Shown piece after piece: positions 21,937-51,428 of a stretch of 64,000 nucleotides of DNA. The notes under the pieces are model-generated. The model did no database searches, was not told the DNA's origin, and saw nothing but the letters and a program-made list of their open reading frames with translations. Origin of the DNA: Patescibacteria group bacterium (GTDB lineage Bacteria; Patescibacteriota; Minisyncoccia; Phycocordibacterales; SIBU01); the NCBI GenBank assembly GCA_040390045.1, contig JAZJZC010000003.1:115-64114 (forward strand), read 5' to 3'. Position 1 is the stretch's first letter; each line of letters opens with the position of its first letter. Position numbers and translations under genes: made by a program.

Positions 21937-24900
21937 ATGCGGAAATTTTTACTTTCATTTTTCATAGTCACCCTCACACTCTACGCGTCGTTTTCACCGA
22001 TGGGGAGTTCAAGGGTGTTTGGCCAACTCATCGATATTCCTCTTGATACTGGGGGAGATACAGGTGGCCTAACTTCACCAAATCTTCCAACTCTTCCAGA
22101 TTTTCAACCAGGAGATGGCGTGCGCGCCGACAGCGGAACCAGTCAGGGGGCTGTTGCCGCGGGATCAAACACCGTGGGAGGTGCAAATAATTCTCAATCT
22201 ACACCAGCGGTTATGCAGTTCGCGAGCTGTTTTGTTTTTGCCGCAACAGCTGGATTAGCTGGAGGTTTACACCTAGAAAATTGCGCCGCCAGTGTTATGT
22301 ATATCATCATGTGGATTTTCTCCTGGATACTCTGGTTGTCTGGAAAAATTTTGGACATGTCGGTCTATTACACCATCAACCTTGCTGATCTGTTAAACCA
22401 TGTTCCTGTGGTTGATATTGGGTGGAGAATTTTCCGCGATCTCGCCAACATTTTCTTCATATTTATTCTCTTGTGGGTAGCAATCGGTACGATTCTTGGA
22501 CTGATCTCGGGAAAAACCAAGGAAATTATTGTGCACCTCGTCATCGTGGCGCTTTTAATGAACTTCAGTCTTTTTATAACAAAAACTGTCATTGATGCTT
22601 CAAACATCGTCGCGATTCATTTCTACAACCTCATCGTTACTGGCACTTCCACGGGTACACCTCCAACCACAAGTCTTTCTGGAGCTTTTATGGAAGGCTT
22701 GAAAATTCAAACTCTCTTCCAACCTCAAACTCCTGGAGGGCAGGCGGGAGGAATTGCTGGTTTAGCGGCAGACTATAGTGGTGGAATAATAGACGCCTTT
22801 AAAGTCATCCTCATTGGCGGTTTTGGAATTGCGGTCATGATGATTGCCTCGTACATCTTTTTTGTGGCAGCAATCTTATTTATCGTCCGTCTGATCAATT
22901 TAATGATGGTTATGATTCTCTCACCGTTGGCTTTCCTGGCTTTCGTCCTACCTTCAACGGAAAAATATGCTGACCAGTGGAAAGAGAAATTGATTGGCCA
23001 GTCAATTTTCGCGCCGATTTACCTCGCGATAACCTATGTAGTAATAAAAACTATTCAATCTCCGGCATTTACAAGTGTGGTCTCGGTCAACAATAGAGAC
23101 ACTGGAGCGTCAGTTATGTCAGCTTCTGCTCTTATATTTTATGGCGCATCTGATACCGGTTCCGCTGCCGGCTTCGCCTTTGTCTTTAACTTCATTCTAC
23201 TCATTGGACTCATGCTTGGTTCGATTCTCGTCGCCAAAAAAATGGAAGCGGGTGGAATCGAATTTGCTGTTGAGGCTGGAAAAACAGCGGGAGGGTTTAT
23301 CGGAAGAAGTGTGGCGAGAGGGAAGTATATTACCGCAGTTTCGTCAACCTATTCTGGGGCCGTGGGCGGTATTGGGGGTAGAGTAGCGAATGTTTTAGGT
23401 TTCAAGGACACAGCAAAATCTTTACGAGAACATGCGGCAAAAGTATCCGCTAAGGGCGATTTTGCTCAAAAGAAAATGGATATGAACGAGTGGGATAGAA
23501 AATTTGGAAGGAGCGCTTTTGGTACAACCGAACTGGGAAGTTTTATTAGGGAGAAAACAACTGGCGGCGCCTTATTCGGAACTAAAGCCAAATTTGGTGG
23601 CGAAAAATCAGTAGGCGAGTCCTATGAGGAGAGCGAACATTTGCGTGATGAAGCACAAGATGTGGAACGTGCAAACGACGTCAAGAGAGCCGCTCTTGTG
23701 CTACAAAGTGAAATAAAAAACCCGAAGGCAACAAAAACAAAGGGTGAGCTGTTAGCAAAAGATGCGTCTGGTAAATTTCTTTTCAGGCCAGCCGTTCTTC
23801 CAGACAAACCTGACGGAAAGGGGGGCCTGAGAGAAATGACAGAAGATGAGTGGGTAGCAGATCTGCAAAAAAAGGAAAGGGATGAGAATAAAAAAATACT
23901 GCTCGATGCGGTTCAATCAGCCGTAACACGGCTTCCCTCCACAGGTCTTGTCCATCTCCAAGAAGAAGTCATAAAAACTGTTCTACCTTATTCGACAGAA
24001 AGACAGGTTGACGAACTAATAAAATCTACTGATGGCGGTTGGACAAAAGAAGACAAGGATGAATTTCTTGAAATCTATTTTAATCAACTGAAAGAAGATG
24101 GTGAAAAAGCTTCTGATGAACTCGAAGCGTTTGATCAAAAATTAGCTGCCTACGAGCAAGAAGTTCGAGAAGGTAAATTTGCAATTGATTCTGCCACAGG
24201 AAAAGTAATTACAGACAACAAGGGAAGGGTTATCGCCAAAGGAACCACTCTAGATGCAGACGGAAATGCTTCTGGGGATACTTTTGAAATTCCGGAATAT
24301 AAACAAACCGATGCGTTCCGCGCTGTGTATGCAAAAACTCGTCGATACATGTCAGATAAGGGATTTGAACTCCTAAATATCGTCAACTTTAGCTCTCATC
24401 TTTCGCAAAGTACCAAGGACCGACTCAAAAGAGAGGGAAAAAACGAAAAGGAGGGAAATCTTCTCCGTGCTGTACCTGCTATTGGTAAAATTATGAAATG
24501 GGGCACCGTCCAGAATATACGCGACCCCAACAAAACTTCGGGATTTACAGACCAATTCCGTGTTGATATTCGGTCTATAAAAGATGCTGATTGGGTTAAA
24601 TTACTCACTGTATTACGTGAACAAAAAGATCCTATCACCGGAGAATTTATGTACCGCAATACGGATGACGAGCGCGCCGAAGCGTTGCGAACAGGCAATT
24701 TTGAACTTACCGTTAAAGATAATTTGTGGGAAGCTCGAGCCCGAGACTTTTTGGCCGGGAGAGCGGCTGTTGAATCGGCAAACACCCCTGGAGGATTGCG
24801 TAAATTGTACGAAAATATTCGTCTTATGGGAGCCGAGGTTCTTAGAGAAACAGCTAAAAAGGATCCTGTGGATGTAAAAATCCTTTTGGAGGGAGCCTTT

Positions 24901-25185
24901 CAAGCTCTAAAAGAGAATGAGGAAGGAGAGAGAATGATGACGGTTGAGACTCAACAGCTCATCAGGAAACTAATTCAAACTAAGGAAGGATGGGATATTG
25001 GACAGAAAATGGAAAATGCTGAATTCCAGCGAATGAGAGAGAGGTTGGAAAAGGCTTTCCGAGCGGATAGTAAAAATGTGGTTGAATTCACTGATTGGAC
25101 AGATCCTGCACAACGTGCAGCGGCTATTGCTGAAGGATTAGAGGGTAGATTTAATAGGATGGGATTACCAAAAGCTACACCATAA
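21937..25185 (+). CDS. VirB6/TrbL-like polytopic membrane protein with ~600-aa cytoplasmic/coiled-coil C-terminal extension
   Basis: ~8 hydrophobic helices in the first ~480 aa (e.g. IFFIFILLWVAIGTILGLI, GIAVMMIASYIFFVAAILFIVRLINLMMVMILSPLAFLAF), then a charged region rich in K/E/D. Confidence 0.5.
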   Translation: MRKFLLSFFIVTLTLYASFSPMGSSRVFGQLIDIPLDTGGDTGGLTSPNLPTLPDFQPGDGVRADSGTSQGAVAAGSNTVGGANNSQSTPAVMQFASCFVFAATAGLAGGLHLENCAASVMYIIMWIFSWILWLSGKILDMSVYYTINLADLLNHVPVVDIGWRIFRDLANIFFIFILLWVAIGTILGLISGKTKEIIVHLVIVALLMNFSLFITKTVIDASNIVAIHFYNLIVTGTSTGTPPTTSLSGAFMEGLKIQTLFQPQTPGGQAGGIAGLAADYSGGIIDAFKVILIGGFGIAVMMIASYIFFVAAILFIVRLINLMMVMILSPLAFLAFVLPSTEKYADQWKEKLIGQSIFAPIYLAITYVVIKTIQSPAFTSVVSVNNRDTGASVMSASALIFYGASDTGSAAGFAFVFNFILLIGLMLGSILVAKKMEAGGIEFAVEAGKTAGGFIGRSVARGKYITAVSSTYSGAVGGIGGRVANVLGFKDTAKSLREHAAKVSAKGDFAQKKMDMNEWDRKFGRSAFGTTELGSFIREKTTGGALFGTKAKFGGEKSVGESYEESEHLRDEAQDVERANDVKRAALVLQSEIKNPKATKTKGELLAKDASGKFLFRPAVLPDKPDGKGGLREMTEDEWVADLQKKERDENKKILLDAVQSAVTRLPSTGLVHLQEEVIKTVLPYSTERQVDELIKSTDGGWTKEDKDEFLEIYFNQLKEDGEKASDELEAFDQKLAAYEQEVREGKFAIDSATGKVITDNKGRVIAKGTTLDADGNASGDTFEIPEYKQTDAFRAVYAKTRRYMSDKGFELLNIVNFSSHLSQSTKDRLKREGKNEKEGNLLRAVPAIGKIMKWGTVQNIRDPNKTSGFTDQFRVDIRSIKDADWVKLLTVLREQKDPITGEFMYRNTDDERAEALRTGNFELTVKDNLWEARARDFLAGRAAVESANTPGGLRKLYENIRLMGAEVLRETAKKDPVDVKILLEGAFQALKENEEGERMMTVETQQLIRKLIQTKEGWDIGQKMENAEFQRMRERLEKAFRADSKNVVEFTDWTDPAQRAAAIAEGLEGRFNRMGLPKATP

Positions 25186-26812: not shown

Positions 26813-27213
26813 GGGATAGGGGGTAGGGTTTAGGGTATAATTAAACCAATGACATTAAGTTCATTCAAAGAATTAATTGTTTGGCAAAAAGGTATTGAGC
26901 TTGTTAAAGAGATCTACAAGTTAACGGAAAGCTTTCCGAAAACTGAAACATACGGGCTGACTAGTCAGATGAGAAGGTCCGCGGTTTCAATCCCTTCCAA
27001 CATTGCTGAAGGTTATAAACGAAAAAACGTGAAGGAGTACATACAATTTTTGAGCATAGCTGATGGTTCAGCGGCCGAGCTTGAAACACAGCTAATAATT
27101 TCAAAGTCAATTTACAAAACTAATTTTTCAATAGCTGAAAATTTGTTAGAAGAAATACAGAAAATGCTCATAACGATGATTCGCAAACTAAACCCTAAAC
27201 CCTAAACCCTTCT
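26813..27213. mobile_element. ~400-bp TIR-bounded mini-element carrying a four-helix-bundle (rRNA-IVS-type) protein gene
   Basis: 5' TIR GGGATAGGGGGTAGGGTTTAGGGTATAATTAAACC; 3' TIR ACTAAACCCTAAACCCTAAACCCT (reverse-complementary GGGTTTAGGG repeats); the 3' TIR encodes the protein C-terminus LNPKP*. Confidence 0.6.
26849..27205 (+). CDS. Four-helix-bundle protein (23S rRNA intervening-sequence protein family)
   Basis: LTSQMRRSAVSIPSNIAEGYKRKNVKEYIQFLSIADGSAAELETQL matches the family signature. Confidence 0.8.
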   Translation: MTLSSFKELIVWQKGIELVKEIYKLTESFPKTETYGLTSQMRRSAVSIPSNIAEGYKRKNVKEYIQFLSIADGSAAELETQLIISKSIYKTNFSIAENLLEEIQKMLITMIRKLNPKP

Positions 27214-27215: not shown

Positions 27216-27641
27216 ATGAGATTCCAAGTTCCACAATTCATTGAAGTTGAAGATAAAATTTTTGGTCCCTTGACCATCAAACAATTTATCTACCTGGCTG
27301 GAGGTGGGGGATTGTGTTTTATTTTCTATTCATACTTCAAACTCTATATCGCCATACCACTCATGATACCGGTGATAGCCTTTTCTGTAGCCTTAGCGAT
27401 GTACAAAGTCAACAATCGCTCTTTTATACTCATCCTTGAGTCAGCTTTCAAATATATGGTCACCAACAAACTATACATCTGGAAAAAAACCGACAGAAAA
27501 CCGACACACAAAACTGAAACTGCACCCGACACACTTTTGTATGTACCCAAACTTTCCGACAGTAAACTGAAAGACTTAACGTGGAGTCTTGATATTAACG
27601 AAAATACCTCGCTCGGTGCCAAAGAGAGTATGGAGCGTTAG
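27216..27641 (+). CDS. Small 2-TM membrane protein, PrgI/VirB3-like candidate
   Basis: 141 aa, two adjacent hydrophobic helices (LCFIFYSYFKLYIAIPLMIPVIAFSVALAMY) directly upstream of the virB4 genes, as in Gram-positive T4SS. Confidence 0.4.
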   Translation: MRFQVPQFIEVEDKIFGPLTIKQFIYLAGGGGLCFIFYSYFKLYIAIPLMIPVIAFSVALAMYKVNNRSFILILESAFKYMVTNKLYIWKKTDRKPTHKTETAPDTLLYVPKLSDSKLKDLTWSLDINENTSLGAKESMER

Positions 27642-27643: not shown

Positions 27644-28157
27644 GATACGAAAATACGAAATGGAAACGAATATACGAAAAAATACGAAAACAACCTCACC
27701 AAGTGTATTGTATCCGGAATTATCGTATGATTTGGTTGGTATTTTTTTTGATGTACACAAAGAACTCGGTTTGTACGGGAGAGAAAAACAATATGCTGAT
27801 GCAATCGAGCTAAAACTCAAGCTTCGAAACATTCCTTATGAAAGGGAACTGGCGATTTCTGATAGTGGCAACATACTTGATTTTCTAGTTGATAGAAAAA
27901 TAATATTGGAATTAAAATCTAAGCGGATGTTAACTCCAGATGATTTTCGCCAAACCCAACACTACTTGCAAGAAACACAAATGCGCTTGGGTTTATTAGT
28001 CAACTTCAGAGAAAAAAATATTAAGCCTGTCCGTATTGTTCGCATAGATACCGTAAAAAAGTTACAATATAAGAACGAGAAGGAAAGTCAGTAAGATTGC
28101 GCAAAAAGTTTTTGTATAATTTCGTATATTGGCATTAATAATTCGTATTTTCGTATG
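27644..28157. mobile_element. ~515-bp TIR-bounded mini-element carrying a GxxExxY (PD-(D/E)xK-like) gene, inserted between the prgI-like and virB4 genes
   Basis: 5' TIR GATACGAAAATACGAAA (27644-27660) / 3' TIR AATTCGTATTTTCGTAT (28141-28156); internal TACGAAA direct repeats; the 3' TIR overlaps the ATG of the downstream gene. Confidence 0.6.
27660..28094 (+). CDS. GxxExxY family protein (PD-(D/E)xK nuclease-like)
   Basis: VGIFFDVHKELGLYGREKQYADAIELKLKLRNIPYERE…DFLVDRKIILELKS…LGLLVNF matches the family pattern; the N-terminus is encoded by the repeat. Confidence 0.65.
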   Translation: METNIRKNTKTTSPSVLYPELSYDLVGIFFDVHKELGLYGREKQYADAIELKLKLRNIPYERELAISDSGNILDFLVDRKIILELKSKRMLTPDDFRQTQHYLQETQMRLGLLVNFREKNIKPVRIVRIDTVKKLQYKNEKESQ

Positions 28158-28813: not shown

Positions 28814-30631
28814 ATGGGACTATTTGATATTTTTAAGAAAAAAGAAAAACTTCCCGACATTGCGTCAATTTTGCCACAAGAAATTTATGCTGCCGGTGTG
28901 TTGGAATTGAAAGATATCATCGCACCGTCGGCGCTCAAGGTCAGCCCACGGACGCTGAACCTGGGAGAAAAAATTGTCAGAACTTTTTTTGTGATTTCCT
29001 ACCCACGATTTCTATCAGCTGGTTGGTTTTCACCGATTATCAACCTCGACAAAGTGTTTGATATTTCAATCTTCATTCATCCGATTGACACAGCGGTAGT
29101 CTTGCGACAATTCCAGAAAAAGGTAGCCGAGGTGCAAAGCCAAATTGCTACGAGAGAGAAAAAAGGGCTTGTCCGCGACCCAATGCTTGATACGGCATAT
29201 CACGATCTCGAAAGTCTCCGTGATAACTTGATGCAAGCTCAAGAAAAATTGTTTGATGTCGGTCTCTATATTTCCATTTACGCCGACAGCGATGCTGAAC
29301 TCGACAAAATCGAATCGGAAATAAAATCCCTACTCGAATCAAAATTAATTTATTTAAAACCGGCGCTCTTCCAACAGGAACAGGCATTTCGAAGTGTTAT
29401 TCCTATGGCTCAAGATGAACTCATGATCCATTCAAAGCTAAATTCGTCTCCGCTTTCTTCGTTGTTTCCGTTTACGTCTTTCGATCTTACGTCAGACAAA
29501 GGAATTCTCTATGGCATTAACCGCCACAACTCATCACTGGTCCTTTTTGATCGTTTCAGTTTGGAAAACTATAACTCAATTACGTTCGCCAAATCTGGTT
29601 CCGGAAAAAGTTACAACACTAAATTGGAAATTTTGAGAACCTTGATGTTTGATACTGAGGTCATTGTCATCGACCCTGAACGCGAATATGAATACATGGC
29701 GGAAGCCACGGGAGGGAAGTACTTTACGATTTCGCTCAACTCAAATCATCACATCAACCCGTTTGATCTACCGATCCCGCGAGAAGATGAATCGGCCACG
29801 GATGTCCTTCGCTCAAACATCATCAACCTAGTTGGTCTTTTCAGAATTATGCTCGGCGGTCTTTCTGCCGAAGAAGACGCTTTGATTGACCGCGCCATTA
29901 GCGAAACCTATGCTCTTAAAGACATCACGCCTGACTCGGATTTTAAAAATATCGAGCCGCCTCTGCTTTCAGATTTTGAACTGGTGCTTGCCGGTATGGA
30001 AGGCGCGGAGTCTTTGGTGCAACGTTTGAGTAAATATACTCGTGGCACTTGGGCTGGTTTTATCAATAGACCTTCAAACATCGACATCGATAGTAAATTT
30101 ATTGTCTTCTCTCTTCGCGATATGGAAGACGAATTGAAACCAGTCGCCATGTATATCGTCATGCACTATATCTGGAATGCAATCCGCAAAAATTTACGCA
30201 AACGTTTGCTTGTCATCGACGAGGCGTGGTGGATGATGAAATCAGAAGACACGGCATCATTTCTCCTTGGGCTCGCCAAGCGAGGACGAAAATATTTCCT
30301 CGGCCTTTCCACCATCACACAAGACGTGGACGACTTTTTGAAATCCCCTTACGGCTTGCCGATTATTACCAACTCGTCGATCCAAATGCTTCTCAAGCAG
30401 TCGCCGTCCTCAATCGATAAAATTCAAAAAGTGTTCAGCTTAACTGATGAAGAAAAATATTTATTACTCGAATCCGATGTTGGAGAGGGAATTTTCTTTG
30501 TTGGACTAAAACACGTGGCTATAAAAGTGATTGCTTCATACACCGAAGATCAGATTATCACTTCGGATCCATCACAATTACTCGCCATCAAAAAGGCGAA
30601 GAAGGAGCTTGAGGCAGGACAGACCACGTAA
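28814..30631 (+). CDS. VirB4-like type IV secretion ATPase (C-terminal ATPase part)
   Basis: Walker A AKSGSGKS, Walker B LLVIDEAWWMM, 605 aa. Confidence 0.85.
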   Translation: MGLFDIFKKKEKLPDIASILPQEIYAAGVLELKDIIAPSALKVSPRTLNLGEKIVRTFFVISYPRFLSAGWFSPIINLDKVFDISIFIHPIDTAVVLRQFQKKVAEVQSQIATREKKGLVRDPMLDTAYHDLESLRDNLMQAQEKLFDVGLYISIYADSDAELDKIESEIKSLLESKLIYLKPALFQQEQAFRSVIPMAQDELMIHSKLNSSPLSSLFPFTSFDLTSDKGILYGINRHNSSLVLFDRFSLENYNSITFAKSGSGKSYNTKLEILRTLMFDTEVIVIDPEREYEYMAEATGGKYFTISLNSNHHINPFDLPIPREDESATDVLRSNIINLVGLFRIMLGGLSAEEDALIDRAISETYALKDITPDSDFKNIEPPLLSDFELVLAGMEGAESLVQRLSKYTRGTWAGFINRPSNIDIDSKFIVFSLRDMEDELKPVAMYIVMHYIWNAIRKNLRKRLLVIDEAWWMMKSEDTASFLLGLAKRGRKYFLGLSTITQDVDDFLKSPYGLPIITNSSIQMLLKQSPSSIDKIQKVFSLTDEEKYLLLESDVGEGIFFVGLKHVAIKVIASYTEDQIITSDPSQLLAIKKAKKELEAGQTT

Positions 30632-30710
30632 CACATAGCATGGAACATGTAACAGAATAGCTTTGTATCCATGATTCATGTTGCGTGCTCCATGTTTCAT
30701 TTTTTAATCT
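30632..30710. repeat. Intergenic repeat sharing GAACATG / GCTCCATG / TGTTGCGTG submotifs with the rpmH-dnaA spacer
   Basis: catagcatggaacatgtaacagaa…catgttgcgtgctccatgtttc versus 37101-37200 catagaacatgtatcacagaacatggaaca…atgctccatg…tgttgcgtg. Confidence 0.5.
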
Positions 30711-31727
30711 ATGGCTGAAAAAGAACCAGAAAAAATTTCTCAAAAAGACAAAATTTCCGGCACTGAGTGGGGGATGGTGCTTGGGGTTCTTTTGATTGTT
30801 GATCTGGTCCAATTTGCACTCGACTGGATAGGAATTCCTTTTATTGGGAACCTAGGAACAGTTCTAAATCGATTCATTGATATCGGGGTTGCCCTTGGTT
30901 GGTCTACATACCTATATTTACGCGGGATTACGATGGAAACCAAAAAAATTGGTAGTATTATATTGACCTTTTTCTTTGAGGAGATACCGAGCATTGACGC
31001 TTTCCCGTTTTGGACTGCTGACGGGGCCTTTATTTACTTTTCAGTAAAAGCTGAGAAGCAAGTGCAGGCGGTGGCGGCAGTGGGAGTAGCGGTGGCGGCA
31101 GTAGCCCTTGCTCCGGAAACTGGCGGCGCGTCTCTTGCAGCAGAGGGAGTAGTAGCTGCTGATGTCGCAGCTGAAGGTGGAGCTGTAGCCGAGGAGGCAG
31201 CAGAGGGAGTAACTGGAGTGGCAGAAACCGTTCATGGTGCCGAGGAGGGTTTGGAAATGTCAGATGCCTATGCGGACGAAATGGGACAAGAAAGTGACGC
31301 TCGTGACAATCAAACCGAGCCCGAAACTGAACACTTAGAGGAAGATAGTGGAACGGGTGACGAAAACCATGACCTTTCGGATGAAGAGAATGACGAGATG
31401 GGAAGACAGTCTGACGAACAATCGAAAGAAAACAAAACACCAGAAGAAGAGGAAGAAACCAGTAAAAAAAAGAAGAGGGAATCTGAGAAAGGGTCTCGGG
31501 AATCGCTTTTGGGTGGTGGACAAACAGGAAAACCTGGTGAAATTGGTGGCAATCGAAACAATCTCGACCTCCGCGGCAGTGCCGCTTATGGGGAAAGAAG
31601 GAAAAAAGAAAGAGAGCTTGGTGCACTTCAAAATGTCACTGATTTAACCATGTCGTACAAACAAAGAAAAGAGGGAAGGAAAGATAATAGTAAAATTAAA
31701 GACGATGAAACTTCACTTGCTGAATAA
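30711..31727 (+). CDS. Membrane protein with 3-4 TM helices and a long acidic, low-complexity C-terminal tail
   Basis: Hydrophobic N-terminal third; tail rich in E/D/K (EEDSGTGDENHDLSDEENDEMGRQSDEQSKENK). Confidence 0.5.
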   Translation: MAEKEPEKISQKDKISGTEWGMVLGVLLIVDLVQFALDWIGIPFIGNLGTVLNRFIDIGVALGWSTYLYLRGITMETKKIGSIILTFFFEEIPSIDAFPFWTADGAFIYFSVKAEKQVQAVAAVGVAVAAVALAPETGGASLAAEGVVAADVAAEGGAVAEEAAEGVTGVAETVHGAEEGLEMSDAYADEMGQESDARDNQTEPETEHLEEDSGTGDENHDLSDEENDEMGRQSDEQSKENKTPEEEEETSKKKKRESEKGSRESLLGGGQTGKPGEIGGNRNNLDLRGSAAYGERRKKERELGALQNVTDLTMSYKQRKEGRKDNSKIKDDETSLAE

Positions 31728-31771
31728 GCGGTACTAGTATCAGTAAAACTTGTGGTAAAATGTAATCACTT

Positions 31772-32788
31772 ATGAAATATCTCAACTTCATATTTTTATT
31801 GGCAATGATGTTTGTCTCAGTGAGCACAGCGCATGCCCAACTTCAAAGCCTCGACAATCAGTCTGGAGGTATCATTATAAATAGCGACCCGGCGAATCCG
31901 AAGCCTCGACAGTTTGTCACCGTTACCATCCAAAGTTACACCACAGACCTCGACCGTTCCGAGGTGTCTTGGTTTGTAAATGGTGTTTTGCAAAAAAAAG
32001 CCATCGGTGAAAAAAGTTTTCTTTTTAAAACCGGCGGGCTTGGAAGTTTCTCAAATATTTTAGTCACCATCAAAACTCCAGAGGGTGAATTTCTACAATC
32101 GGTTTTAAATATCAACCCCGCGAGCCTCGACCTTATGTGGGAAGCTCAGTCCTACACACCACCTTTTTTTGAAGGTAAGGCAAGCTATCCTTTTGAAGGG
32201 TCTGTTAAAATTGTGGCGATGCCAAGTATTTCAAACGAGAATGGTGTGGCTATAAATCCAAAAACCCTCGTTTACACATGGTCAATTAACGGCGATGCTG
32301 TTTCTAAAGTTTCAGGCTATGGCAGAAATTTCATGTTTTTAGATGGCACCATACCAATAAACGCCACAACAGTTAGTGTAGAGGCCGCGACACTTGATAA
32401 AAAATACGTCGCAAAAAATTCAATTACCATAACTCCGTCTAGCTCCCAGATAATTTTGTATGAGGATAGCCCAACATTGGGAGTGTTATATAATAAAGCG
32501 CTCACAGGAAGTTTGGATCTTCAAAATCAAGAAATTCGTATCGCAAGCATTCCTTTCTTTTTAAGTGCTAAAAACCGCGAAGACGGAACCTTGAAATACG
32601 AATGGACCCAAAACGACCAGCAGGTAAACAGCAGTGACACCAGCAGTCTTTCTTTCAAACAATCCGGAGGTGCCGCAGGTAATGCGCTTATTGGTGTCCA
32701 AGTTAGCCACTTGACCAAAATTCTTCAGTTTGTACATAGTGGGCTTTCTATTAATTTTGGTCAATCAGTCTCTGGAGGCGTTTTTTAA
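31772..32788 (+). CDS. Secreted protein of unknown function
   Basis: Signal peptide MKYLNFIFLLAMMFVSVSTAHA; beta-rich composition. Confidence 0.5.
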   Translation: MKYLNFIFLLAMMFVSVSTAHAQLQSLDNQSGGIIINSDPANPKPRQFVTVTIQSYTTDLDRSEVSWFVNGVLQKKAIGEKSFLFKTGGLGSFSNILVTIKTPEGEFLQSVLNINPASLDLMWEAQSYTPPFFEGKASYPFEGSVKIVAMPSISNENGVAINPKTLVYTWSINGDAVSKVSGYGRNFMFLDGTIPINATTVSVEAATLDKKYVAKNSITITPSSSQIILYEDSPTLGVLYNKALTGSLDLQNQEIRIASIPFFLSAKNREDGTLKYEWTQNDQQVNSSDTSSLSFKQSGGAAGNALIGVQVSHLTKILQFVHSGLSINFGQSVSGGVF

Positions 32789-32794
32789 AGCACA

Positions 32795-33781
32795 ATGTTT
32801 ACTACACTCAAAAAAATCTTTTCGGTTCAAAGCGCTCTGTCAATTTTAATACTATTTTTTTTCTTGGCTCCCCTTATCTCGTACTCTCTTGATTACGTAC
32901 CCCTTGCGGAGATTCCCGGAACCGTAAGCAACGCTACTGGTGGCACAACACTTTCAACGTACCTTACGGGAATATTCAGAGCTGGTATTGTTATGGCGGG
33001 AGTTTTAGCCTTCCTAATGATTGTGATTGGAGGATTCCAGTATCTATCAACTGACGCCATGACAGGAAAAGAGGAGGGAAAGGTACGAATAGAGCGCGCA
33101 GTTGGGGGGCTTCTCTTGGCCCTTGCCTCGTATATTATTCTCTACACGATCAACCCAGACTTGGTAAGTCTTAATTTAACCTTAAGCGGCACAAGGCCCG
33201 CCTCAGATGTGGGTAGGCCACCAGATCTCATCTCAGCTGAAAGTGCGGCCCTAGACAGGGCCGCTTCAGAGATCAACAAAAACCGACAAGCGACACGTGA
33301 CGAGGCAACGAAACTTGACGAAGCGGTTGGTGTGTACCGAGCCCAAAGAGAAGCTATTTTGAAAGAGATCGCTGCAGGGGACAACTCCCACATCGCTCAA
33401 TTTAATGAGTTGCAACAAAAAATTGTCATCAACCAAACTGACGCTCAGGCAATCCGTGACTATGGTAGCGCAAAAAATGGAATTTTACTGAAAACAACAT
33501 CGGCTATCAGCGAGGGCGCCCAAGCACAAAATTCTGTGGGAGGAATTTATGCCCGATGGATAGGTGGTGCAGCGCCAGCCGAACTTGAAGATCACCTAGA
33601 TGCCATCGACCTAAGTGTCAATACTGCAACGGCGAAATTAAACCGGGAAATAGAGACGGCAAGAACAATCAATAACCCTGAACTCGCCGCAAAGTACACT
33701 GCATGGCTTGATGAAATTAAGGCCTACGCTGCCACATCAAAGACCCAGATTACTAGTGCATATAATCCACCGCGACCATAA
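32795..33781 (+). CDS. VirB2/TrbC-like pilin candidate with ~200-aa C-terminal extension
   Basis: Signal peptide, then two hydrophobic helices separated by a short charged loop (GIVMAGVLAFLMIVIGGFQYL…GKEEGK…AVGGLLLALASYIILYTI), the VirB2 topology. Confidence 0.4.
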   Translation: MFTTLKKIFSVQSALSILILFFFLAPLISYSLDYVPLAEIPGTVSNATGGTTLSTYLTGIFRAGIVMAGVLAFLMIVIGGFQYLSTDAMTGKEEGKVRIERAVGGLLLALASYIILYTINPDLVSLNLTLSGTRPASDVGRPPDLISAESAALDRAASEINKNRQATRDEATKLDEAVGVYRAQREAILKEIAAGDNSHIAQFNELQQKIVINQTDAQAIRDYGSAKNGILLKTTSAISEGAQAQNSVGGIYARWIGGAAPAELEDHLDAIDLSVNTATAKLNREIETARTINNPELAAKYTAWLDEIKAYAATSKTQITSAYNPPRP

Positions 33782-33783
33782 CT

Positions 33784-35049
33784 ATGTCCAAAAAAACCGC
33801 CATTGCCATAATCGTTTTTCTTGTCCTGCTCATCGCTGGTGGCTTTTTGGCTTTTTATTTTTACTTTAATCGTGGTACGGGCAACGACATCATCCCCGCA
33901 ACAAACACACCGGTTACAAGTATTTTTCCTTCGAGTAACGTCGGGGGCTCAAACAGTGGAAACAACGGGGGTAACAATACTTCAGCAAGTACTACAATTA
34001 GCGGAAACCAGAATCAATCTAACTCTCTGCCGATGCCGGTTCTTAAACAACTATCTATTCGTCCAAGTGCTGGGGCTGTTGTTATCGCCACCACCTCTCC
34101 GGTTGTACTAGTAAATTTTATTGAAAAGGGGACGGGAAATGTCTACCAGGTCAGCCCAGAAAACAATCTTGAAATTCGACTTTCCAATACCACCATACCA
34201 AAAATCCAAGAGGCGCTCTGGAACAAAACAGGTTCACAGGTGATCACTCGGTACACTACTTCAGATGAAGTTGATTCGATCAAATCCTACAGCGGCTTTC
34301 TGTTGCCGAAATCGGCCGACAATCCCGATGGCGCGCTTACAGGATATTTTCTTTCAGAAAATATTAGAGCCATGGTTAAAAATCCAGACCAAAACAAAAT
34401 CTTCTATTTACTACCGACGTCATCTGGTAGCACCGGCATCATCGCCGATTTCGATGGCAGCAAAAAAACCCAAATTTTTGACTCCCTTCTAAAGGAATGG
34501 CTCGTTGACTGGACATCACCAAATATCATTTCCCTCAACACCAAGCCATCTGCTGGAGTTCCAGGCTACTTATTTCTTCTGAATACCAAAACCGGCGGCC
34601 TCTCACGGGCGATCACTGGTATTAAAGGACTGACCTCCAAAGTCAGCCCGACTGGGAACATCATCTTGTACTCAGAAAGCGCTGATGGAGCGCTCTCATT
34701 AAAAATCTACAATCTTAAAACGGGTACAACATTAGAAACTCCCGTTGCGACCTTGGCAGAAAAGTGTGTTTGGTCAAGCAATAATTCCGACATCTTCTAC
34801 TGTGCAGTACCAACGTATGTTCCACCCGGCAACTTTCCGGATGACTGGTACAAAGGCCTGGTACTCTTTTCAGATGAGATCTGGAGAATAGACAGCACCA
34901 CAGGAACTGGAGAACTGATAGCTGATCCCACAAACCTTACTAAAGAACAAATTGACGGCGTAAACCTATCTCTAAGTCCAAAAGAGGATTACCTGCTATT
35001 TACTAATAAAAAAGATTTTCATTTGTGGAGTTTGCGGTTACAACAATAA
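33784..35049 (+). CDS. Membrane-anchored extracytoplasmic protein (possible beta-propeller)
   Basis: Signal anchor IAIIVFLVLLIAGGFLAFYFYF; 421 aa. Confidence 0.5.
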   Translation: MSKKTAIAIIVFLVLLIAGGFLAFYFYFNRGTGNDIIPATNTPVTSIFPSSNVGGSNSGNNGGNNTSASTTISGNQNQSNSLPMPVLKQLSIRPSAGAVVIATTSPVVLVNFIEKGTGNVYQVSPENNLEIRLSNTTIPKIQEALWNKTGSQVITRYTTSDEVDSIKSYSGFLLPKSADNPDGALTGYFLSENIRAMVKNPDQNKIFYLLPTSSGSTGIIADFDGSKKTQIFDSLLKEWLVDWTSPNIISLNTKPSAGVPGYLFLLNTKTGGLSRAITGIKGLTSKVSPTGNIILYSESADGALSLKIYNLKTGTTLETPVATLAEKCVWSSNNSDIFYCAVPTYVPPGNFPDDWYKGLVLFSDEIWRIDSTTGTGELIADPTNLTKEQIDGVNLSLSPKEDYLLFTNKKDFHLWSLRLQQ

Positions 35050-35050
35050 C

Positions 35051-35190
35051 TCGATACGAAAATACCTTTTACCCTCCGATACGAAATACGGACAAACGAA
35101 AATACGAAATTATACGAAAACCGTAGCGGTGGTAGAAAGTTTTCGTATTTTTTCGTATGTTCGTACTCACCATTCGTATTTTCGTATCGA
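35051..35190. mobile_element. 140-bp cargo-less MITE of the GATACGAAAATAC TIR family, exactly filling the stop-to-stop gap between convergent genes
   Basis: TCGATACGAAAATACC (35051-35066) … TTCGTATTTTCGTATCGA (35174-35191); internal TACGAAA / TTTCGTA repeats. Confidence 0.65.
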
Positions 35191-35652
35191 CTAGGCGACA
35201 TATTTAATCACAACGCGCCGTTGCGCCCCTTCGCCACGAGACTCAGTTTTAATATCTTTTTGACCATCGAGAAATGAGTGAACCTGCATTCGTTCGTAAG
35301 AAGACATCGGGTCAAGTTCGACATCAACCTTAAACGATCGTGCTCGATCAGACATAATTTTTACTTTAGCTTTCAGGTGTTCGAGCGCTTTATCTTGATA
35401 GCCATTAACATCAACTACAAACTTTACAGGAGTTCCCGTCGGGGAAGTTTTTTTTGAAATAACCCTACGAATAATGTAATTAAGCGCACCGAGATGCTCT
35501 CCTTGTGGCCCAATTAAAACCGAAGAATCTTTTGTGTGTATTAAAAAACGAACGTGCTTTGATTGTGAGTTTTCGATACGCTCAATTTTCTCAAAACCCA
35601 CATTCATAAAGGTTAAAAACTCTTTTAAGACTGCTTCTATATCCATTTCCAT
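35191..35652 (-). CDS. jag: Jag/KhpB (KH + R3H domain RNA-binding protein)
   Basis: KH-like LIGPQGEHLGALNYIIR and C-terminal R3H segment; located with yidC. Confidence 0.8.
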   Translation of the reverse strand: MEMDIEAVLKEFLTFMNVGFEKIERIENSQSKHVRFLIHTKDSSVLIGPQGEHLGALNYIIRRVISKKTSPTGTPVKFVVDVNGYQDKALEHLKAKVKIMSDRARSFKVDVELDPMSSYERMQVHSFLDGQKDIKTESRGEGAQRRVVIKYVA

Positions 35653-35736
35653 GATGGTATTACTATACTATATATTTTTAAAAAAACACCCAAGAATGGG
35701 CAATTTTTCAAAAAATACTGAGAATTGTGGACAATT

Positions 35737-36486
35737 TTAGGCTTTTACTTGTTCTTCGGGTGTCATTTTTGCCATATTTCGGCGAACATATAGCTCCTGA
35801 CCGATAGCAAAGAGGTTGCTGGTAATCCAATACAAAGATACCGCACCCGAAATGCTATAAGAAATAAATCCTACAAACACAGGGAGAAAGTATCGCATTT
35901 GTAAATTGAGAGTTCGAGCGAAGTCGTCTTTCATAGAAGCTCCGGAGGGGGTTTTCAATTTAGGCACTGCCGGCATAGCAAAGCGGACTTGAAAATACTG
36001 GCTAGCGGAAACTAAAATAGCTAAAATCAGGCTGCCTTTGGTAATATCGATAATGCCCAAAAAATGCATATTAACCAGCGGGCTCGAAACAAACGGGTAG
36101 AGCAGTTCAGTGCGAATGGCTGGCAAACCACCTTTATAAAAAATATAGTATAAGGTTAAAATTATCGGAATTTGGATAATAGTCAAAAAGAAAGTCGTAA
36201 AGGGATTAACGTTTTTTTCTTTGTACAAAGCAAGCGTCGCTCGAGTATGAGCCTCGCGATCATCTTTATGCAACTCTTTGAGACGTGCGATTTCTCCTTC
36301 CAAGGTTTTCATCTTTATCTGAGTAACCGTGGCTTTTTGGGAAAGAGGGAAGAGGGCGAGCTTGACGAGAAAGGTCAAAATAACCACCGCGATGCCAGCG
36401 TCAGCCCACGGCAAAATATCCATAAGAAAAACCAAGCCGTTGTATAAAGGTTGGTAGACAATGAGGGTGAAAATATGAGTTATCAT
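35737..36486 (-). CDS. yidC: YidC/Oxa1 family membrane protein insertase (short Gram-positive type)
   Basis: 249 aa, 5 TM, conserved yidC-jag-rnpA-rpmH context. Confidence 0.85.
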   Translation of the reverse strand: MITHIFTLIVYQPLYNGLVFLMDILPWADAGIAVVILTFLVKLALFPLSQKATVTQIKMKTLEGEIARLKELHKDDREAHTRATLALYKEKNVNPFTTFFLTIIQIPIILTLYYIFYKGGLPAIRTELLYPFVSSPLVNMHFLGIIDITKGSLILAILVSASQYFQVRFAMPAVPKLKTPSGASMKDDFARTLNLQMRYFLPVFVGFISYSISGAVSLYWITSNLFAIGQELYVRRNMAKMTPEEQVKA

Positions 36487-36544
36487 TTTGAATACTATAG
36501 CGTATTTTGGACCCGCGCGCCAACAAAAGAGACCTGCCTAGTAC

Positions 36545-36883
36545 TTAACCTGTGATTGCTGCTTTTTTAAAAACAGCCTCAATCTCGGTTTTTAATTTTT
36601 CTATAGGATCCTTCGCAATCTTCTTCTTTAAAAAGAAAACTGCTTGCAATCCTGACTTTGCTTTGGAAAGGTACGGGCGTATCAGAGCATACATTCTCCT
36701 TTTCATAAAATTTCTTTGAACTGCACGTTTCTCGATTTTTTTAGAAACAACCACTGAAAACCGAGCTGGCTGGCTACCTAAGGACACCGTTCGCAATGAA
36801 AAGCTCTCCGAGTGAAAGCTTTTGCCTTTTTCTAAAATATCCTTGAAGAGGCGAGTGCCCACTTTTCTATTAGAAGGAATCAT
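36545..36883 (-). CDS. rnpA: Ribonuclease P protein component
   Basis: MIPSNRKVGTRLFKDILEKGK… basic ~112 aa, downstream of rpmH; the ORF-track start at 36895 likely over-extends. Confidence 0.8.
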   Translation of the reverse strand: MIPSNRKVGTRLFKDILEKGKSFHSESFSLRTVSLGSQPARFSVVVSKKIEKRAVQRNFMKRRMYALIRPYLSKAKSGLQAVFFLKKKIAKDPIEKLKTEIEAVFKKAAITG

Positions 36884-36889
36884 AGTTAA

Positions 36890-36966
36890 ATACAAAATAC
36901 TAATGGATACGAATATACAAATTCTCTCATTTGTACCTTTGTACTGATTTGTATTTCGTATTTCCT
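36890..36966. repeat. Degenerate copy of the GATACGAA-TIR element between rpmH and rnpA
   Basis: GGATACGAATATACAAA … TTTGTATTTCGTATTTCC (imperfect inverted repeat). Confidence 0.4.
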
Positions 36967-37100
36967 TAAACCGAGAGCTTTTTGCGGCCCTTCTGTCGTC
37001 GGCTACTCAAAACCTTTTTACCTCCGTGCTTTCTTTGGCGAGCCAAAAAACCGTGAGTTCTAGCTCTCTTTTTCTTTTTTGGTTTGTAGGTGAATGACAT
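36966..37100 (-). CDS. rpmH: 50S ribosomal protein L34
   Basis: Hand-translated 44 aa [44 protein letters not shown]; below the ORF-track length cutoff. Confidence 0.85.
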
Positions 37101-37302
37101 ATGGGTTCATAGAACATGTATCACAGAACATGGAACACCTGAAGAAAACACACTCTGTTTTTCTTATGCTCCATGCTGTATGTTACGTGTTGCGTGTTAT
37201 TAACATCTTATGCACACATTATAAACATATCCGGGCCCTTTCCACAAGCTACCCAAAAATTAATTAGGTATATAATGAACCCACTAAAAACTTTTAAAAA
37301 TA
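37101..37302. promoter_or_regulatory. Candidate oriC / dnaA promoter region (rpmH-dnaA spacer)
   Basis: Conserved origin gene order; DnaA-box-like TTATGCACA and TTTCCACAA; AT-rich stretch before dnaA; contains the GAACATG repeat shared with 30632-30710. Confidence 0.5.
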
Positions 37303-38649
37303 ATGGAAAACGAACAGCTTTGGAACAATGTTTTGCTAGAAATTGAATTGGCTGTTTCTAAAGCCAACTTTAATACGTGGTTTAAAGACACTCGCATCCT
37401 AAAACAGGAGGAGGGGGTAGTGTTTATTTCTGTGCCTAACGCTTTCGCAAAAGACTGGCTTTTTAACAAATACCATAAGACTGTTTTGAAGTCCCTACGG
37501 ACCCTGGCGGAAAATGTTCGAGCTCTTGAGTACGTTATAGCCAAAGATGATGGCAAACGAAGAGAGGTTGAGCCGGTGAGAAGCCCGAGTGCAAGCCCCG
37601 CTGCACAATTACCACTTCAAGATTTTTACATCGACAAAGATAACAACTTAAACCCAAAATACACCTTCGAATCCTTTGTTGTTGGACCTTTCAACGAACT
37701 TGCGCACGCAGCGGCTCAGGCGGTTGCTAAAAAACCTGGTAGCGCCTACAACCCTTTGTTTATCTACGGCAACACCGGCCACGGAAAAACTCACCTCATC
37801 CAAGCGGTAGGAAATTTCATAAAAAACCAAAACGCCGGCAAAAAAATTTTTTATGTCACCTCAGAAAAATTTGCAATTGATTACGTAAACGCCGTTCAAG
37901 TAAACAAAGTAAATCTTTTTAAGGAAAAATACCGAAAATATGACGTCCTTATCATGGACGACATTCAATTTTTCTCAAATAAAGAAAAAACTCAAGAGGA
38001 ACTTTTCCATTTGTTTAATAATCTCCACGAAAACAACAAACAAATTATATTTTCTTCTGATAAACACCCAAACTTTATACCAAACCTTGAGGACCGTTTA
38101 AAATCTCGTTTTTCCGCCGGCATGATTATTGACATTCCGACGCCTGATAGGGAATCGCGTTTAGCTATTCTTAAAACGAAAGCTCTTCTATCATCCGTTC
38201 ATATCGCTGACGACGTTTTAGAACACCTAGCCACTGCTATCGAGGGAAACATTCGCGAGCTTGAGGGAATGCTAAATGTTTTGGTCTGTCAATCACAACT
38301 GAAAGGTAAGGAACTTGGCTTAAGTGAAGTGAGAAATCTCATAAAAAATAGCTCGAAACCTAAAAAGGCTATTTCTGTAAAAGAAGTAACCAAAGCCGTG
38401 GCCAGCTTTTTTAATATTGAAGAATCAGACATCTACGAAAAAACCCGCAGGAAGGAAGTGGTGAAGCCGCGTCAGTTAGTTATGTACATTTTACGAGAAG
38501 ATTTTCGAATTTCTTATCCTTTAATCGGGCAGAAGCTCGGTGGACGCGATCACACAACCGTCATTCACTCCTGTGAGAAAATAAAAGAGGAGTTAAAATC
38601 AAATCCGGCCTTAATTCAAGAGATTGATCAGATCCGAACACTGCTTTAA
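37303..38649 (+). CDS. dnaA: Chromosomal replication initiator protein DnaA
   Basis: Walker A GNTGHGKTHL, C-terminal DnaA-box binding domain. Confidence 0.95.
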   Translation: MENEQLWNNVLLEIELAVSKANFNTWFKDTRILKQEEGVVFISVPNAFAKDWLFNKYHKTVLKSLRTLAENVRALEYVIAKDDGKRREVEPVRSPSASPAAQLPLQDFYIDKDNNLNPKYTFESFVVGPFNELAHAAAQAVAKKPGSAYNPLFIYGNTGHGKTHLIQAVGNFIKNQNAGKKIFYVTSEKFAIDYVNAVQVNKVNLFKEKYRKYDVLIMDDIQFFSNKEKTQEELFHLFNNLHENNKQIIFSSDKHPNFIPNLEDRLKSRFSAGMIIDIPTPDRESRLAILKTKALLSSVHIADDVLEHLATAIEGNIRELEGMLNVLVCQSQLKGKELGLSEVRNLIKNSSKPKKAISVKEVTKAVASFFNIEESDIYEKTRRKEVVKPRQLVMYILREDFRISYPLIGQKLGGRDHTTVIHSCEKIKEELKSNPALIQEIDQIRTLL

Positions 38650-38862
38650 AAATTTTTAGGGGGATAAGAAGGGGAAAAGTCGGGAACAGTCTGGGGAAAA
38701 GTTTATGAAAAAATTAAAACGAAAAAATTCTTCACAACCACAAGTCAGTTTCGCACACCTTATACTTTTAAGAATTCAATAAAAACCCTTACCCAGCAAC
38801 ACAAGCCGCCAAAACAATGTTATCCCCAAGGTTAGTAGTAGTAATATATTTAATATAGACAT
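38650..38862. promoter_or_regulatory. dnaA-dnaN spacer with DnaA-box-like sites (second oriC candidate)
   Basis: TGTTATCCCCA (one mismatch to TTATCCACA), AACCACAAG. Confidence 0.35.
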
Positions 38863-40093: not shown

Positions 40094-40495
40094 ATGGAAA
40101 AGCTAGAAAAGAATCCGGAAGGAGTTGAATTGCAAAGAGTCGTTGAAGATTTTGATCAAACAATGGGGTCTGGAAATCTTCAAACTGTCGAAAAATTCAA
40201 AGAAATTTGTAAGTATAGAGCTCAACTTGTTCGTCAAAACATAGTATCTCTGGGAGAGTGGGGGAAGCAAGATCTTTTAAAAGAAGCGTCCAGGTTAGAG
40301 AAGGCCGCAAATGGAGACGTTGATGAACTAGTTGCTGAGGCAATGGGACATGCGCGTGCCCATAATTCGACGCGTGAAATACCTACCATATTACAAAAGA
40401 ACCGATCTAAATCACAAGAAGATCAGGAAGCAGTTACAGCGGAGAAAACATGGAAGCGTCTCGCAAGATTGGTAAAAAAACCTGTTCAATCTTAA
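40094..40495 (+). CDS. Hypothetical protein
   Basis: 133-aa ORF, charged; no recognisable motif. Confidence 0.4.
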   Translation: MEKLEKNPEGVELQRVVEDFDQTMGSGNLQTVEKFKEICKYRAQLVRQNIVSLGEWGKQDLLKEASRLEKAANGDVDELVAEAMGHARAHNSTREIPTILQKNRSKSQEDQEAVTAEKTWKRLARLVKKPVQS

Positions 40496-44785: not shown

Positions 44786-44986
44786 TTATTTTCGATGAAA
44801 CAATCGCTCGTGCCATAGTTTTATCAGATATAAATTTTTTTGCAAATCTACGCAAGCTGTGGATAAATGGCGCTCGGGCAGTTTTGGGAAAATGCGTGCT
44901 TCGGCAACACGGAAATCATAGTCGTTTCGTAACGAAAAACTCATAAGTCGCTTCGCTTCTGCGGCCAACTTCGTTTTTCTACTCAA
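44786..44986 (-). CDS. Hypothetical small basic protein
   Basis: 66-aa ORF only; contains a perfect DnaA-box 9-mer TGTGGATAA at 44851-44859 (probably chance). Confidence 0.3.
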   Translation of the reverse strand: MSRKTKLAAEAKRLMSFSLRNDYDFRVAEARIFPKLPERHLSTACVDLQKNLYLIKLWHERLFHRK

Positions 44987-45051
44987 CTCCTTGATTTCCG
45001 TGTCGCCTTTCGCAATGCATTTCCAAAACTGCCCTCGCTAAGATACCGATG

Positions 45052-45672
45052 TTAAGAAACATCGGTAGGCAGAGGTGTCTGTGGTTTTGCTATAGTTTTT
45101 CTTCTGAAGAAACAAATATTCCACACGGTGGTATTGGCCACAACAAGAGTTGTCAGGTATGCGGAAGTTAGAAAATTATATTTATTACTCATTGCTAGTG
45201 CTAGCATGCTGGTTGCGGTCATTATTCCCCAGTAAGAGAGAGTCTCGCTCCACGGTTCTTCAAAGGATTTTCTGAATGTTGGCAGGTAACCAAGTCCATC
45301 AATTATTGAAATCATTAGTACCGAAAGCCAAGGGTTTCTTAGCCACCACCACACTACTACGGCCGCTAAGGCAGAGATGAGTACGAACGTGTCGCTTTTG
45401 GTGATGTTTTTGGTACCATATTTAAAAGCTAATAAAAAAACTAAAACTACTAGGATATTTCCAACGATGAGACTAAAAGTTCCATAATTTCCTCCTCCAC
45501 CTTTTAGAAAAGCTACTGTTGCAGTAATTTGAGTAATAACCCAAATTAACCACGTGTACAAATGAGGCTTTGTTTTTCTAAGAAAAATATCCCGAACATA
45601 AGGAACAAATCCAACTATGGTTAGAATTCCAGTGAGCAAAGATAGTAACAACTTAAAATTAAAATTTTCCAT
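45052..45672 (-). CDS. Hypothetical 5-6 TM membrane protein
   Basis: 206 aa, multiple hydrophobic helices, overlaps ruvC by 14 nt (operon). Confidence 0.5.
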   Translation of the reverse strand: MENFNFKLLLSLLTGILTIVGFVPYVRDIFLRKTKPHLYTWLIWVITQITATVAFLKGGGGNYGTFSLIVGNILVVLVFLLAFKYGTKNITKSDTFVLISALAAVVVWWWLRNPWLSVLMISIIDGLGYLPTFRKSFEEPWSETLSYWGIMTATSMLALAMSNKYNFLTSAYLTTLVVANTTVWNICFFRRKTIAKPQTPLPTDVS

Positions 45673-50088: not shown

Positions 50089-50129
50089 GCCACAAGTATA
50101 GCATTTATATGTTTTTGTCACAAGTATAT

Positions 50130-50882: not shown

Positions 50883-51239
50883 ATGAGTGAATTCACCATG
50901 ATTAAAATTAACTTCTCCGGCCACCCGGTGGCCGGATTCGACGTTGCTCCTTTGGTGGGAGCCAACCTGCCTTTCGAGGCAGCTACCTTGGCCGAGACGG
51001 TTCGGGAACTCATTTTGGCCCTCCCTGGCCGGGATGAGCTCCTCAAAGGGGCCAAGGCGGAGATAATTCTCCCCGGCCTTGGCAGTGCCGTGGCCGTTTT
51101 GTTGGCCGAATGGCATGGCCAGTTCGGCAACTGGCCCTCGATCCGGTGGGCCGTCCGCGGGGAGAAGGGGTTCACTTGGCCCGACGAGGCCCGGGTGGAC
51201 TTGAACTCCGTGCGGGAGTCCGCACGGACCGCTCGCTAG
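50883..51239 (+). CDS. Hypothetical protein (high-GC island)
   Basis: 118-aa ORF with GC3-rich codon usage distinct from the host; no recognisable motif. Confidence 0.5.
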   Translation: MSEFTMIKINFSGHPVAGFDVAPLVGANLPFEAATLAETVRELILALPGRDELLKGAKAEIILPGLGSAVAVLLAEWHGQFGNWPSIRWAVRGEKGFTWPDEARVDLNSVRESARTAR

Positions 51240-51402
51240 TTGCGGACAAAAATCCCAGAGCAATCTGGTTGCGACAAAATCCGGTCGTGTAAATCGAGGT
51301 AAAAAGTTTGTCCCCGTTTTCTTGGAAAAATGGAGAGTCGTGAAGGAGCAGAACTTCCGTCAGGATGACTGTCGACAATAGTCATGAGGGTTAAATTTAT
51401 CT

Positions 51403-51428
51403 GGAGAAGTTTTGGTTAAAACTTCTCC
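51403..51428. repeat. Perfect hairpin GGAGAAGTTTT-ggtt-AAAACTTCTCC (island hairpin family copy 1), preceded by a second hairpin at 51365-51385
   Basis: Exact 11-bp inverted arms; loop context TTTTGGTTAAAA is shared with copy 2. Confidence 0.6.

Follow-up and report, generated by a model that had tools for sequence, protein, structure and literature searches.

Two intergenic spacers of a Patescibacteria group bacterium (GCA_040390045.1, contig JAZJZC010000003.1) carry facing arrays of contiguous, non-palindromic 7-bp units with the consensus 5'-R-N-A-(A/G)-C-A-Y-3'. One spacer follows a gene for a VirB4-like ATPase and the other separates rpmH from dnaA; the arrays in them are called site A and site B, respectively, and the 64-kb stretch that was analysed and holds both is called the window. 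Judged by the relatives that its DnaA retrieved, the host belongs to Paceibacteria, a group of tiny-genome bacteria within the Patescibacteria (Candidate Phyla Radiation, CPR). With moderate confidence, we read both sites as operator-like arrays on duplex DNA to which a protein would bind cooperatively.

Anatomy and specificity of the two arrays

At each site, five or six units on the + strand face five units on the - strand across a gap of 15 or 27 bp, in convergent orientation. The left arm of site A (30614-30655, + strand) consists of six heptads, GCAGGAC AGACCAC GTAACAC ATAGCAT GGAACAT GTAACAG, and extends over the final codons of the VirB4 gene, whose stop codon TAA (30629-30631) lies within a heptad. 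A gap of 15 bp without match to the heptad consensus (30656-30670) separates it from the right arm (30671-30705, - strand), which reads, from its outer end, AAAAAAT GAAACAT GGAGCAC GCAACAT GAATCAT and ends 5 nt ahead of the ATG (30711) of the next gene, orfX1. At site B, the left arm (37104-37138, + strand) begins at a distance of 4 nt from the start codon of rpmH (37100, - strand) and has five heptads, GGTTCAT AGAACAT GTATCAC AGAACAT GGAACAC; the gap (37139-37165) is 27 bp long, as it is in the related locus L003 (28 bp in L082), and the right arm (37166-37200, - strand; from its outer end ATAACAC GCAACAC GTAACAT ACAGCAT GGAGCAT) fits the consensus at 25 of 25 scored positions. The arrays thus described fill the spacers directly upstream of the orfX1 and rpmH start codons.

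An initial annotation of this DNA had described segments 30632-30710 and 37101-37200 as sharing rearranged blocks with recurring CATG cores. The blocks are indeed present in both segments, GAACATGTA at 30643 and 37112, GCTCCATG at 30687 and 37168, and TGTTGCGTG at 30679 and 37188, and the two spacers (30632-30710 and 37101-37302) have four exact 9-mers in common: CATGGAACA, GAACATGTA, TGCTCCATG and TGTTGCGTG. These words are, however, junctions of neighbouring 7-bp units and not copies of one longer repeat, which is why the order of the blocks differs between the sites; likewise, the CATG cores are the frequent CAT/G unit junction, other junctions being CAC/G, CAC/A and CAT/A. The relatedness of the two segments stands, while the left bound of the first has to be moved: site A begins about 18 bp further left (30614), still inside the VirB4 gene, at its 3' end.

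The similarity of the two spacers exceeds chance. They have 12 common 7-mers and 8 common 8-mers, where 1.6 and 0.4 are expected, and none of 2000 dinucleotide shuffles matched the observed count of either; their local alignment scores 21 against 10.2 ± 1.8, a score that one of 2000 shuffles reached. Among 1560 intergenic pair comparisons the pair ranks 8th-9th, some other intergenic pairs in the window being more similar for unrelated reasons. Single common words were rejected as the signal, each being at chance frequency in the window; the signal is their joint occurrence together with the 7-bp register.

Specificity was assessed by counting the fits to R1, A3, C5, A6 and Y7 across runs of four or five units that keep a strict 7-bp register. 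On either strand of the whole window, a fit of at least 17/20 over four units is found in the four arms only, which score 20/20 and 24-25/25, while the maxima in 100 shuffles were 18/20 for four units and 21/25 for five. Two adjacent perfect units occur 13 times, always within sites A and B, against about 2.7 expected in a shuffled window of equal size. Since the pattern had first been read from these very sequences, the test was repeated without circularity by means of log-odds matrices. A matrix made from site A only places the site B arms at the top of the rest of the window, with 29.8 and 27.7 bits (next match, 14.4; shuffle maximum, 17.6), and a matrix made from L003 only places exactly the four window arms on top, with 28.2-30.6 bits and the next match at 10.6. 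The matrix from site A of another related locus, L131, likewise ranks the four window arms first, and over the L003 and L131 matrices together the arms score 23-31 bits and the next matches 8-11. The motif is present at no other place in the 64 kb, and the ubiquity in intergenic DNA that the initial annotation had allowed for is not seen, there being two sites only. A scan of viral contigs for five consecutive units was uninformative, returning same-strand tandem repeats only, many of them in giant-virus (GVMAG) contigs.

The tetranucleotide CATG is depleted across the window, with 156 sites against about 240 expected from base composition, which could reflect a CATG-specific restriction system or a general avoidance of palindromes; the densest 80 bp for it are 30639-30718, with 5 sites. 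A CATG methylation cluster, comparable to GATC and SeqA, was considered and rejected, because CATG is just one form of the CAY/R unit junction and site B of L003 has a single CATG.

Conservation and turnover in related genomes

For comparison we used the dnaA loci of 160 related contigs, 2.19 Mb in all, where RNA(A/G)CAY arrays are found almost solely at the two orthologous positions. L003 (JBBTUO01), whose DnaA is 84% identical, has the same arrays at both sites, as does L083, a duplicate of L003 from the same groundwater site; in L131 and L109 arrays are present at site A, and those of L084 at this site are weaker. In L021 (64% identical), four isolated single-arm matches occur, two upstream of dnaA and two elsewhere in the locus; apart from these and the orthologous sites, nothing in the 2.19 Mb rises above threshold. 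L002 lacks the array at site A and carries an inserted gene behind VirB4, and L004 keeps remnants only. The insert in L002 (2800-3380), between VirB4 and orfX1 where the array would lie, is a small gene that looks DUF559-like by eye from its translation.

Of the 60 units, 58 have A at position 3, 57 have C at position 5 and 54 have A at position 6, whereas positions 2 and 4 are variable; the spacer sequence beyond the arrays is unalignable between these genomes. As A3, C5 and A6 are kept while the free positions and the flanks differ, the pattern points to selection at specific positions and away from recent duplication or slippage. The use of the same unit at both sites is a trait of this genome and L003, and not of the whole clade: L131, L109 and L084 keep the motif at site A and have another 7-bp unit at site B. 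The co-regulation of replication and secretion that the initial annotation had suggested can therefore not be upheld as a conserved feature.

Close relatives without RNAACAY at site B have other facing arrays of period 7 there, which directly adjoin the rpmH start on one side and the conserved block of DnaA boxes on the other. In L082 (7816-7906) and L086, the units AATTATC AATGTTC AATTATT AATTTTC are followed by a 28-bp gap and five GANAATT units (4+5); in L087, five AGTATNN units face five NATACNT units (5+5). The units of L002, L109 and L084 are ATTCAGT/AGTTATN-like, and those of L085 and L131 are AAAANNN-like. The L082 units (AATTNTC) resemble the hexamers of Fur boxes (GATAAT), yet they have a 7-bp period.

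Lag-7 autocorrelation alone proved too insensitive and missed these variant arrays, and we therefore used an invariant-column test, which asks for at least three invariant columns in four tandem units; close relatives were those with DnaA at least 75% identical. At period 7, 9 of the 12 close-relative spacers pass, corresponding to 7 of 10 distinct genomes, while none passes at periods 5, 6, 9 or 10 and two pass at period 8. There is no period-7 excess in 128 more distant spacers. Partner sites for the variant units were not found within the fetched loci of the relatives, where site A of L082 is cut off by the end of the locus. Since the period-7 layout is present in most close relatives and the units differ, the layout is a clade feature, and the unit, as judged from the spacer sequences, has undergone repeated changes among species whose DnaA proteins are about 70-85% identical. 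A layout that stays constant while its unit changes suggests that the binder and its sites change specificity together.

Neighbouring genes and origin elements

The gene context given in the initial annotation (VirB4-like ATPase, rpmH, dnaA) agrees with our Pfam scans. The VirB4-like gene (28814-30631, + strand; TraG P-loop and AAA_10 domains) belongs to a type IV secretion system (T4SS)-like cluster that also holds genes for a TrbL/VirB6-like protein (21937-25185, + strand) and PrgI (27216-27641, + strand). On the 3' side of site A lie four open reading frames (ORFs) without match to a curated family, orfX1-X4 (30711-35049, + strand), the first of which, orfX1 (30711-31727, + strand), encodes a predicted membrane protein without Pfam family. 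They are followed by the block of jag, yidC, rnpA and rpmH (35191-37100, - strand), in which rpmH, for ribosomal protein L34 (36966-37100, - strand), is the first gene, and then by dnaA (37303-38649, + strand), with dnaN downstream. The order VirB4 - orfX genes - (jag) - yidC - rnpA - rpmH / dnaA - dnaN is maintained throughout Paceibacteria. The presence of a T4SS near dnaA in Patescibacteria has already been published, with no cis-element described and no word on promoters there (PMC12102498).

To the right of site B, three DnaA-box-like 9-mers, TTATTAACA, TTATGCACA and TTATAAACA (37197-37227, + strand), are phased at 11 bp and conserved in relatives. A conserved CTTTCCACAAG box and then a conserved dnaA -10 element (GGTATATAAT; TATAAT at 37271-37276) follow at 37238-37276 on the + strand, and on the - strand a TATAAT at 37218-37223 is a possible -10 element of rpmH. 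The region 37197-37276, a block conserved clade-wide, could thus consist of back-to-back rpmH and dnaA promoters overlapping DnaA boxes.

A second set of elements lies in the dnaA-dnaN spacer, where a DnaA box, TTATCCCCA, is followed by AGGT and by TAG TAG TAG TAA TAT (38820-38847, + strand; trio-like run at 38833-38847). AT-rich DNA comes after the trio-like run (to 38862), about 20 nt upstream of dnaN, and an equivalent box with a run of TAA/TAG trinucleotides is conserved in this spacer of the relatives. By its sequence, this module is probably a DnaA-trio unwinding site, and it fits the published unwinding arrangement of DnaA box, GC step and DnaA-trio (PMC8235120); if so, the origin would be bipartite around dnaA. 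The rpmH-dnaA spacer had been given the canonical origin position in the initial annotation, which the DnaA-box-like 9-mers next to site B support and the probable unwinding module in the dnaA-dnaN spacer does not. The GC-skew analysis that it had called for, over the 64 kb, shows a cumulative minimum that is shallow and lies at about 38-48 kb; it would agree with an origin near dnaA and is not decisive. The suggestion that the repeats are independent of DnaA held up, as the units bear no likeness to DnaA boxes; because the heptads are unlike DnaA elements and the trio module stands in the dnaA-dnaN spacer, the arrays are adjacent to, and distinct from, the DnaA-dependent elements.

Some further features of the window were recorded. 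Within the T4SS-like cluster, prgI is flanked by small genes of the 23S-rRNA-intervening-sequence (bAvd-like) and PD-(D/E)XK_3 nuclease families (26849-27205 and 27660-28094). The G+C content is 0.47-0.51 at 50000-56000 and about 0.42 elsewhere, and several ORFs there are without Pfam match; this region may be an island of foreign origin. Two inverted copies of a repeat, about 115-128 nt long and 79% identical, lie 12 kb apart (44947-45075 and 57151-57290); the repeat is also present in L084. One copy ends in AAGGAG ahead of a small ORF, whereas strong hairpins come after the other one, beside a PilB-like ATPase gene; the repeat has no Rfam match and may encode a small RNA or form a conserved leader. 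Two intergenic pairs, 2266-2441 with 11214-11307 and 51264-51522 with 52568-52788, have common hairpin-forming segments (e.g., TGGAGAAGTTTTGGTTAAAACTTCTCC) and may be terminator-type repeats.

Candidate functions of the arrays

To our knowledge, the only well-studied precedent for a 7-bp spacing is that of ribbon-helix-helix (RHH) proteins such as omega/ParB of pSM19035. Omega, the RHH ParB of this Inc18 plasmid, occupies 7-10 contiguous WATCACW heptads, direct or inverted, with one dimer per heptad; neighbouring dimers are cooperative, full activity takes at least four contiguous heptads, and the arrays both overlap promoters and act as centromeres (PMC9499535). By analogy, these operators/centromeres would be the closest precedent of the arrays described here, which likewise consist of contiguous non-palindromic 7-bp units, at least four per array (here four arms of five or six), in direct and inverted orientations including the convergent one, and in spacers that would be promoter-proximal. 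Shifted by one base, the unit reads N-A-(A/G)-C-A-Y-R and has the core A-x-C-A-Y in common with the omega heptad, where it is A-T-C-A-C; ATCAC itself is found in 3 of the 60 units (GTATCAC, AAATCAC and ATATCAC). Other short-period RHH arrays are the metboxes of MetJ (8-bp tandem) and the sites of ParG of TP228 and of pB171 ParB (6-bp repeats; parC1 and parC2 flanking the par genes), systems with tandem short units, one dimer on each and cooperative neighbours, in which two arrays flank a gene block. They resemble the present arrays in the tandem short units and differ in period and unit sequence.

Following this precedent, we propose that each heptad would serve as one site for a protein that is small, dimeric and sequence-specific and that binds DNA cooperatively along the array. 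When bound, it would control or block transcription of orfX1-X4 and of rpmH-rnpA-yidC-jag, next to the control region of dnaA. Both loci would then be under a single factor in this genome and in L003. The common regulator put forward in the initial annotation is in line with this, the repeat architecture fitting one sequence-specific binding factor, and is best taken as a plausible proposal and not as an established one. A link of this kind is known from the HP1021 boxes of Helicobacter pylori (consensus KGTWDCD), which are present at oriC2 and at gene promoters (PMC8266642): there too a 7-bp unit stands both at an origin sub-region and at promoters, one non-DnaA regulator links replication and transcription, and the box is loosely like the reverse complement of the unit described here (TGTTNC). 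In contrast to the contiguous phased arrays, however, HP1021 boxes are isolated, and their regulator is an atypical response regulator from an unrelated phylum.

Several points weigh against protein-binding operators of the omega type. The operator role is read from position only. No RHH, ParA or ParB family was found by Pfam in any ORF of the 64-kb window, small ones included, the listed small ORFs show nothing RHH-like by eye, and no omega-like or delta-like gene is present in the 64 kb. The unit consensus, R-N-A-(A/G)-C-A-Y, differs from WATCACW, with T at omega's T position in 7 of the 60 units; a heptad-free stretch of 15-43 bp splits the arms, unlike the gapless arrays of omega; and the context is chromosomal, beside dnaA in Paceibacteria. 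The same unit at both sites is seen in two independent genomes only. Finally, the arrays also fold as long imperfect hairpins and end 4-5 nt ahead of start codons, a placement that would suit an RNA-level element as well.

Candidate binders encoded nearby were set aside. The loci of close relatives encode no homologue of orf133 (40094-40495, 133 aa), which is flanked by dnaN and a DciA-like ORF; being a genome-specific insertion, it is not the binder of a clade-wide element. For Jag and RnpA, the divergence of the proteins does not follow the unit type.

The last of the points raised against the operators leads to an alternative that we regard as possible, if doubtful, in which the facing arrays form a long imperfect hairpin in the intercistronic RNA between VirB4 and orfX1 and in the 5' leader of rpmH. 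The hairpin would mask or expose the adjacent start codon, or would be a processing or binding site, and the KH/R3H protein Jag, from the rpmH operon, might bind its NCAY repeats. Besides the distance of 4-5 nt between the arrays and the rpmH and orfX1 start codons, the TATAAT on the - strand (37218-37223), which is kept in relatives together with a TTGTGG 18 nt upstream, speaks for it, as a promoter there would put site B wholly in the rpmH leader. The predicted folds are also more stable than those of shuffled sequences, with z of -1.96 (site A, + strand), -2.69 (site B, - strand), -2.86 (L003 site A) and -7.7 (L003 site B, + strand), most values lying between -1.5 and -2.9. However, in L131 site A, L003 site B, L109, L084 and L131 site B it is not the sense strand that folds more stably, and in L131 site A and L003 site B the strand preference is strongly opposite to the strand of the downstream gene. 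The RNAalifold covariation term over five site-A orthologues is unfavourable (+1.56), and at variable positions the left arm of a site resembles its right arm no more closely (0.54) than arms of different sites resemble each other (0.58; permutation p 0.4-1.0), so that the pairing potential follows from the unit consensus alone. Some self-complementarity is inevitable where arrays of one unit face each other, and these three negative tests argue that the hairpin is a by-product. The tests are small, with five site-A and two site-B orthologues, and weaken the RNA reading to that extent. A hairpin also leaves the strict 7-nt periodicity unexplained; no Rfam family matches the arrays, and no tRNA and no terminator are predicted in them.

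If the arrays are bound as DNA, their main role could lie in segregation or chromosome organisation and not in gene control, as centromere-like sites of the type Ib parS kind (with an RHH ParB and a ParA) or as an origin-proximal architectural element; we consider this unlikely, yet an alternative to be reckoned with. Site B adjoins the DnaA-box cluster, each arm has at least four contiguous units, the number that parS of pSM19035 needs to activate its ParA (PMC9499535), and the fast switching of units between close relatives resembles a divergence driven by incompatibility. The 64-kb origin region, moreover, has no ParA or ParB gene and no canonical parS at up to one mismatch: the best window match to the 16-bp ParB-parS palindrome TGTTNCACGTGNAACA has two mismatches, which is at chance frequency. 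The same lack of a ParA-like ATPase or RHH gene nearby counts against partition sites, although ParAB may lie elsewhere in the genome than in the window searched, and site A lies amid the secretion cluster, just ahead of the start of a gene.

We think it very improbable that the sites are generic promoter modules, as the initial annotation had offered, or DnaA-dependent parts of the origin such as variant DnaA boxes or iterons. They do stand upstream of genes and beside DnaA boxes; site B is origin-proximal and abuts the phased DnaA-box-like 9-mers. The promoter proposal, however, finds no support, given the lack of a -35/-10 consensus or any sigma-70-like hexamer pair in either array and the absence of the motif upstream of all other genes of the window, where not even two adjacent units occur in any other intergenic region. 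As origin parts, the units have a 7-bp period in place of 9-mers or trinucleotides and are without match to the DnaA-box 9-mer TTATCCACA, and it is the DnaA boxes and the dnaA promoter, not the heptad sequence, that are conserved across the clade, while the DnaA-trio-like module stands in the dnaA-dnaN spacer. Least probable of all are sites without function, that is, chance, simple repeats derived by slippage, or relics resembling miniature inverted-repeat transposable elements (MITE) or repetitive extragenic palindromic (REP) sequences: the window has two copies only and some close relatives lack them (remnants in L004, an insertion in L002), but the shuffle statistics exclude chance, A3, C5 and A6 are kept across species despite differing free positions and unalignable flanks, and the copies occupy orthologous positions from genome to genome without being colinear with one another as copies of a single element would be.

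Cooperative protein-binding arrays remain the reading we favour; the anatomy of the repeats, their specificity and their conservation are established by the sequences, whereas the binding, the family of the protein and its effect on regulation are inferred. The cis-element is a variant of a known cis-architecture, confined to a narrow clade of Paceibacteria. More speculatively, and with low confidence, we picture a chromosomal heptad system of the omega/type Ib kind beside the chromosome origin of a clade of Paceibacteria, in which a putative small protein would coat the facing arrays between rpmH and the DnaA boxes, and in some lineages those behind VirB4 as well, as operator and/or centromere, specificity would have switched at least four times between genomes whose DnaA is 70-85% identical, and the T4SS-associated operon would here be coupled to rpmH/dnaA. 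Should the binder also have an ATPase as its partner, a partition design of the plasmid type would here be in use on a chromosome. Very little is known about gene control or the organisation of the chromosome origin in Patescibacteria, and a layout that is kept while its sequence changes between close relatives gives a concrete starting point for identifying a regulator or a segregation factor among bacteria that are uncultured.

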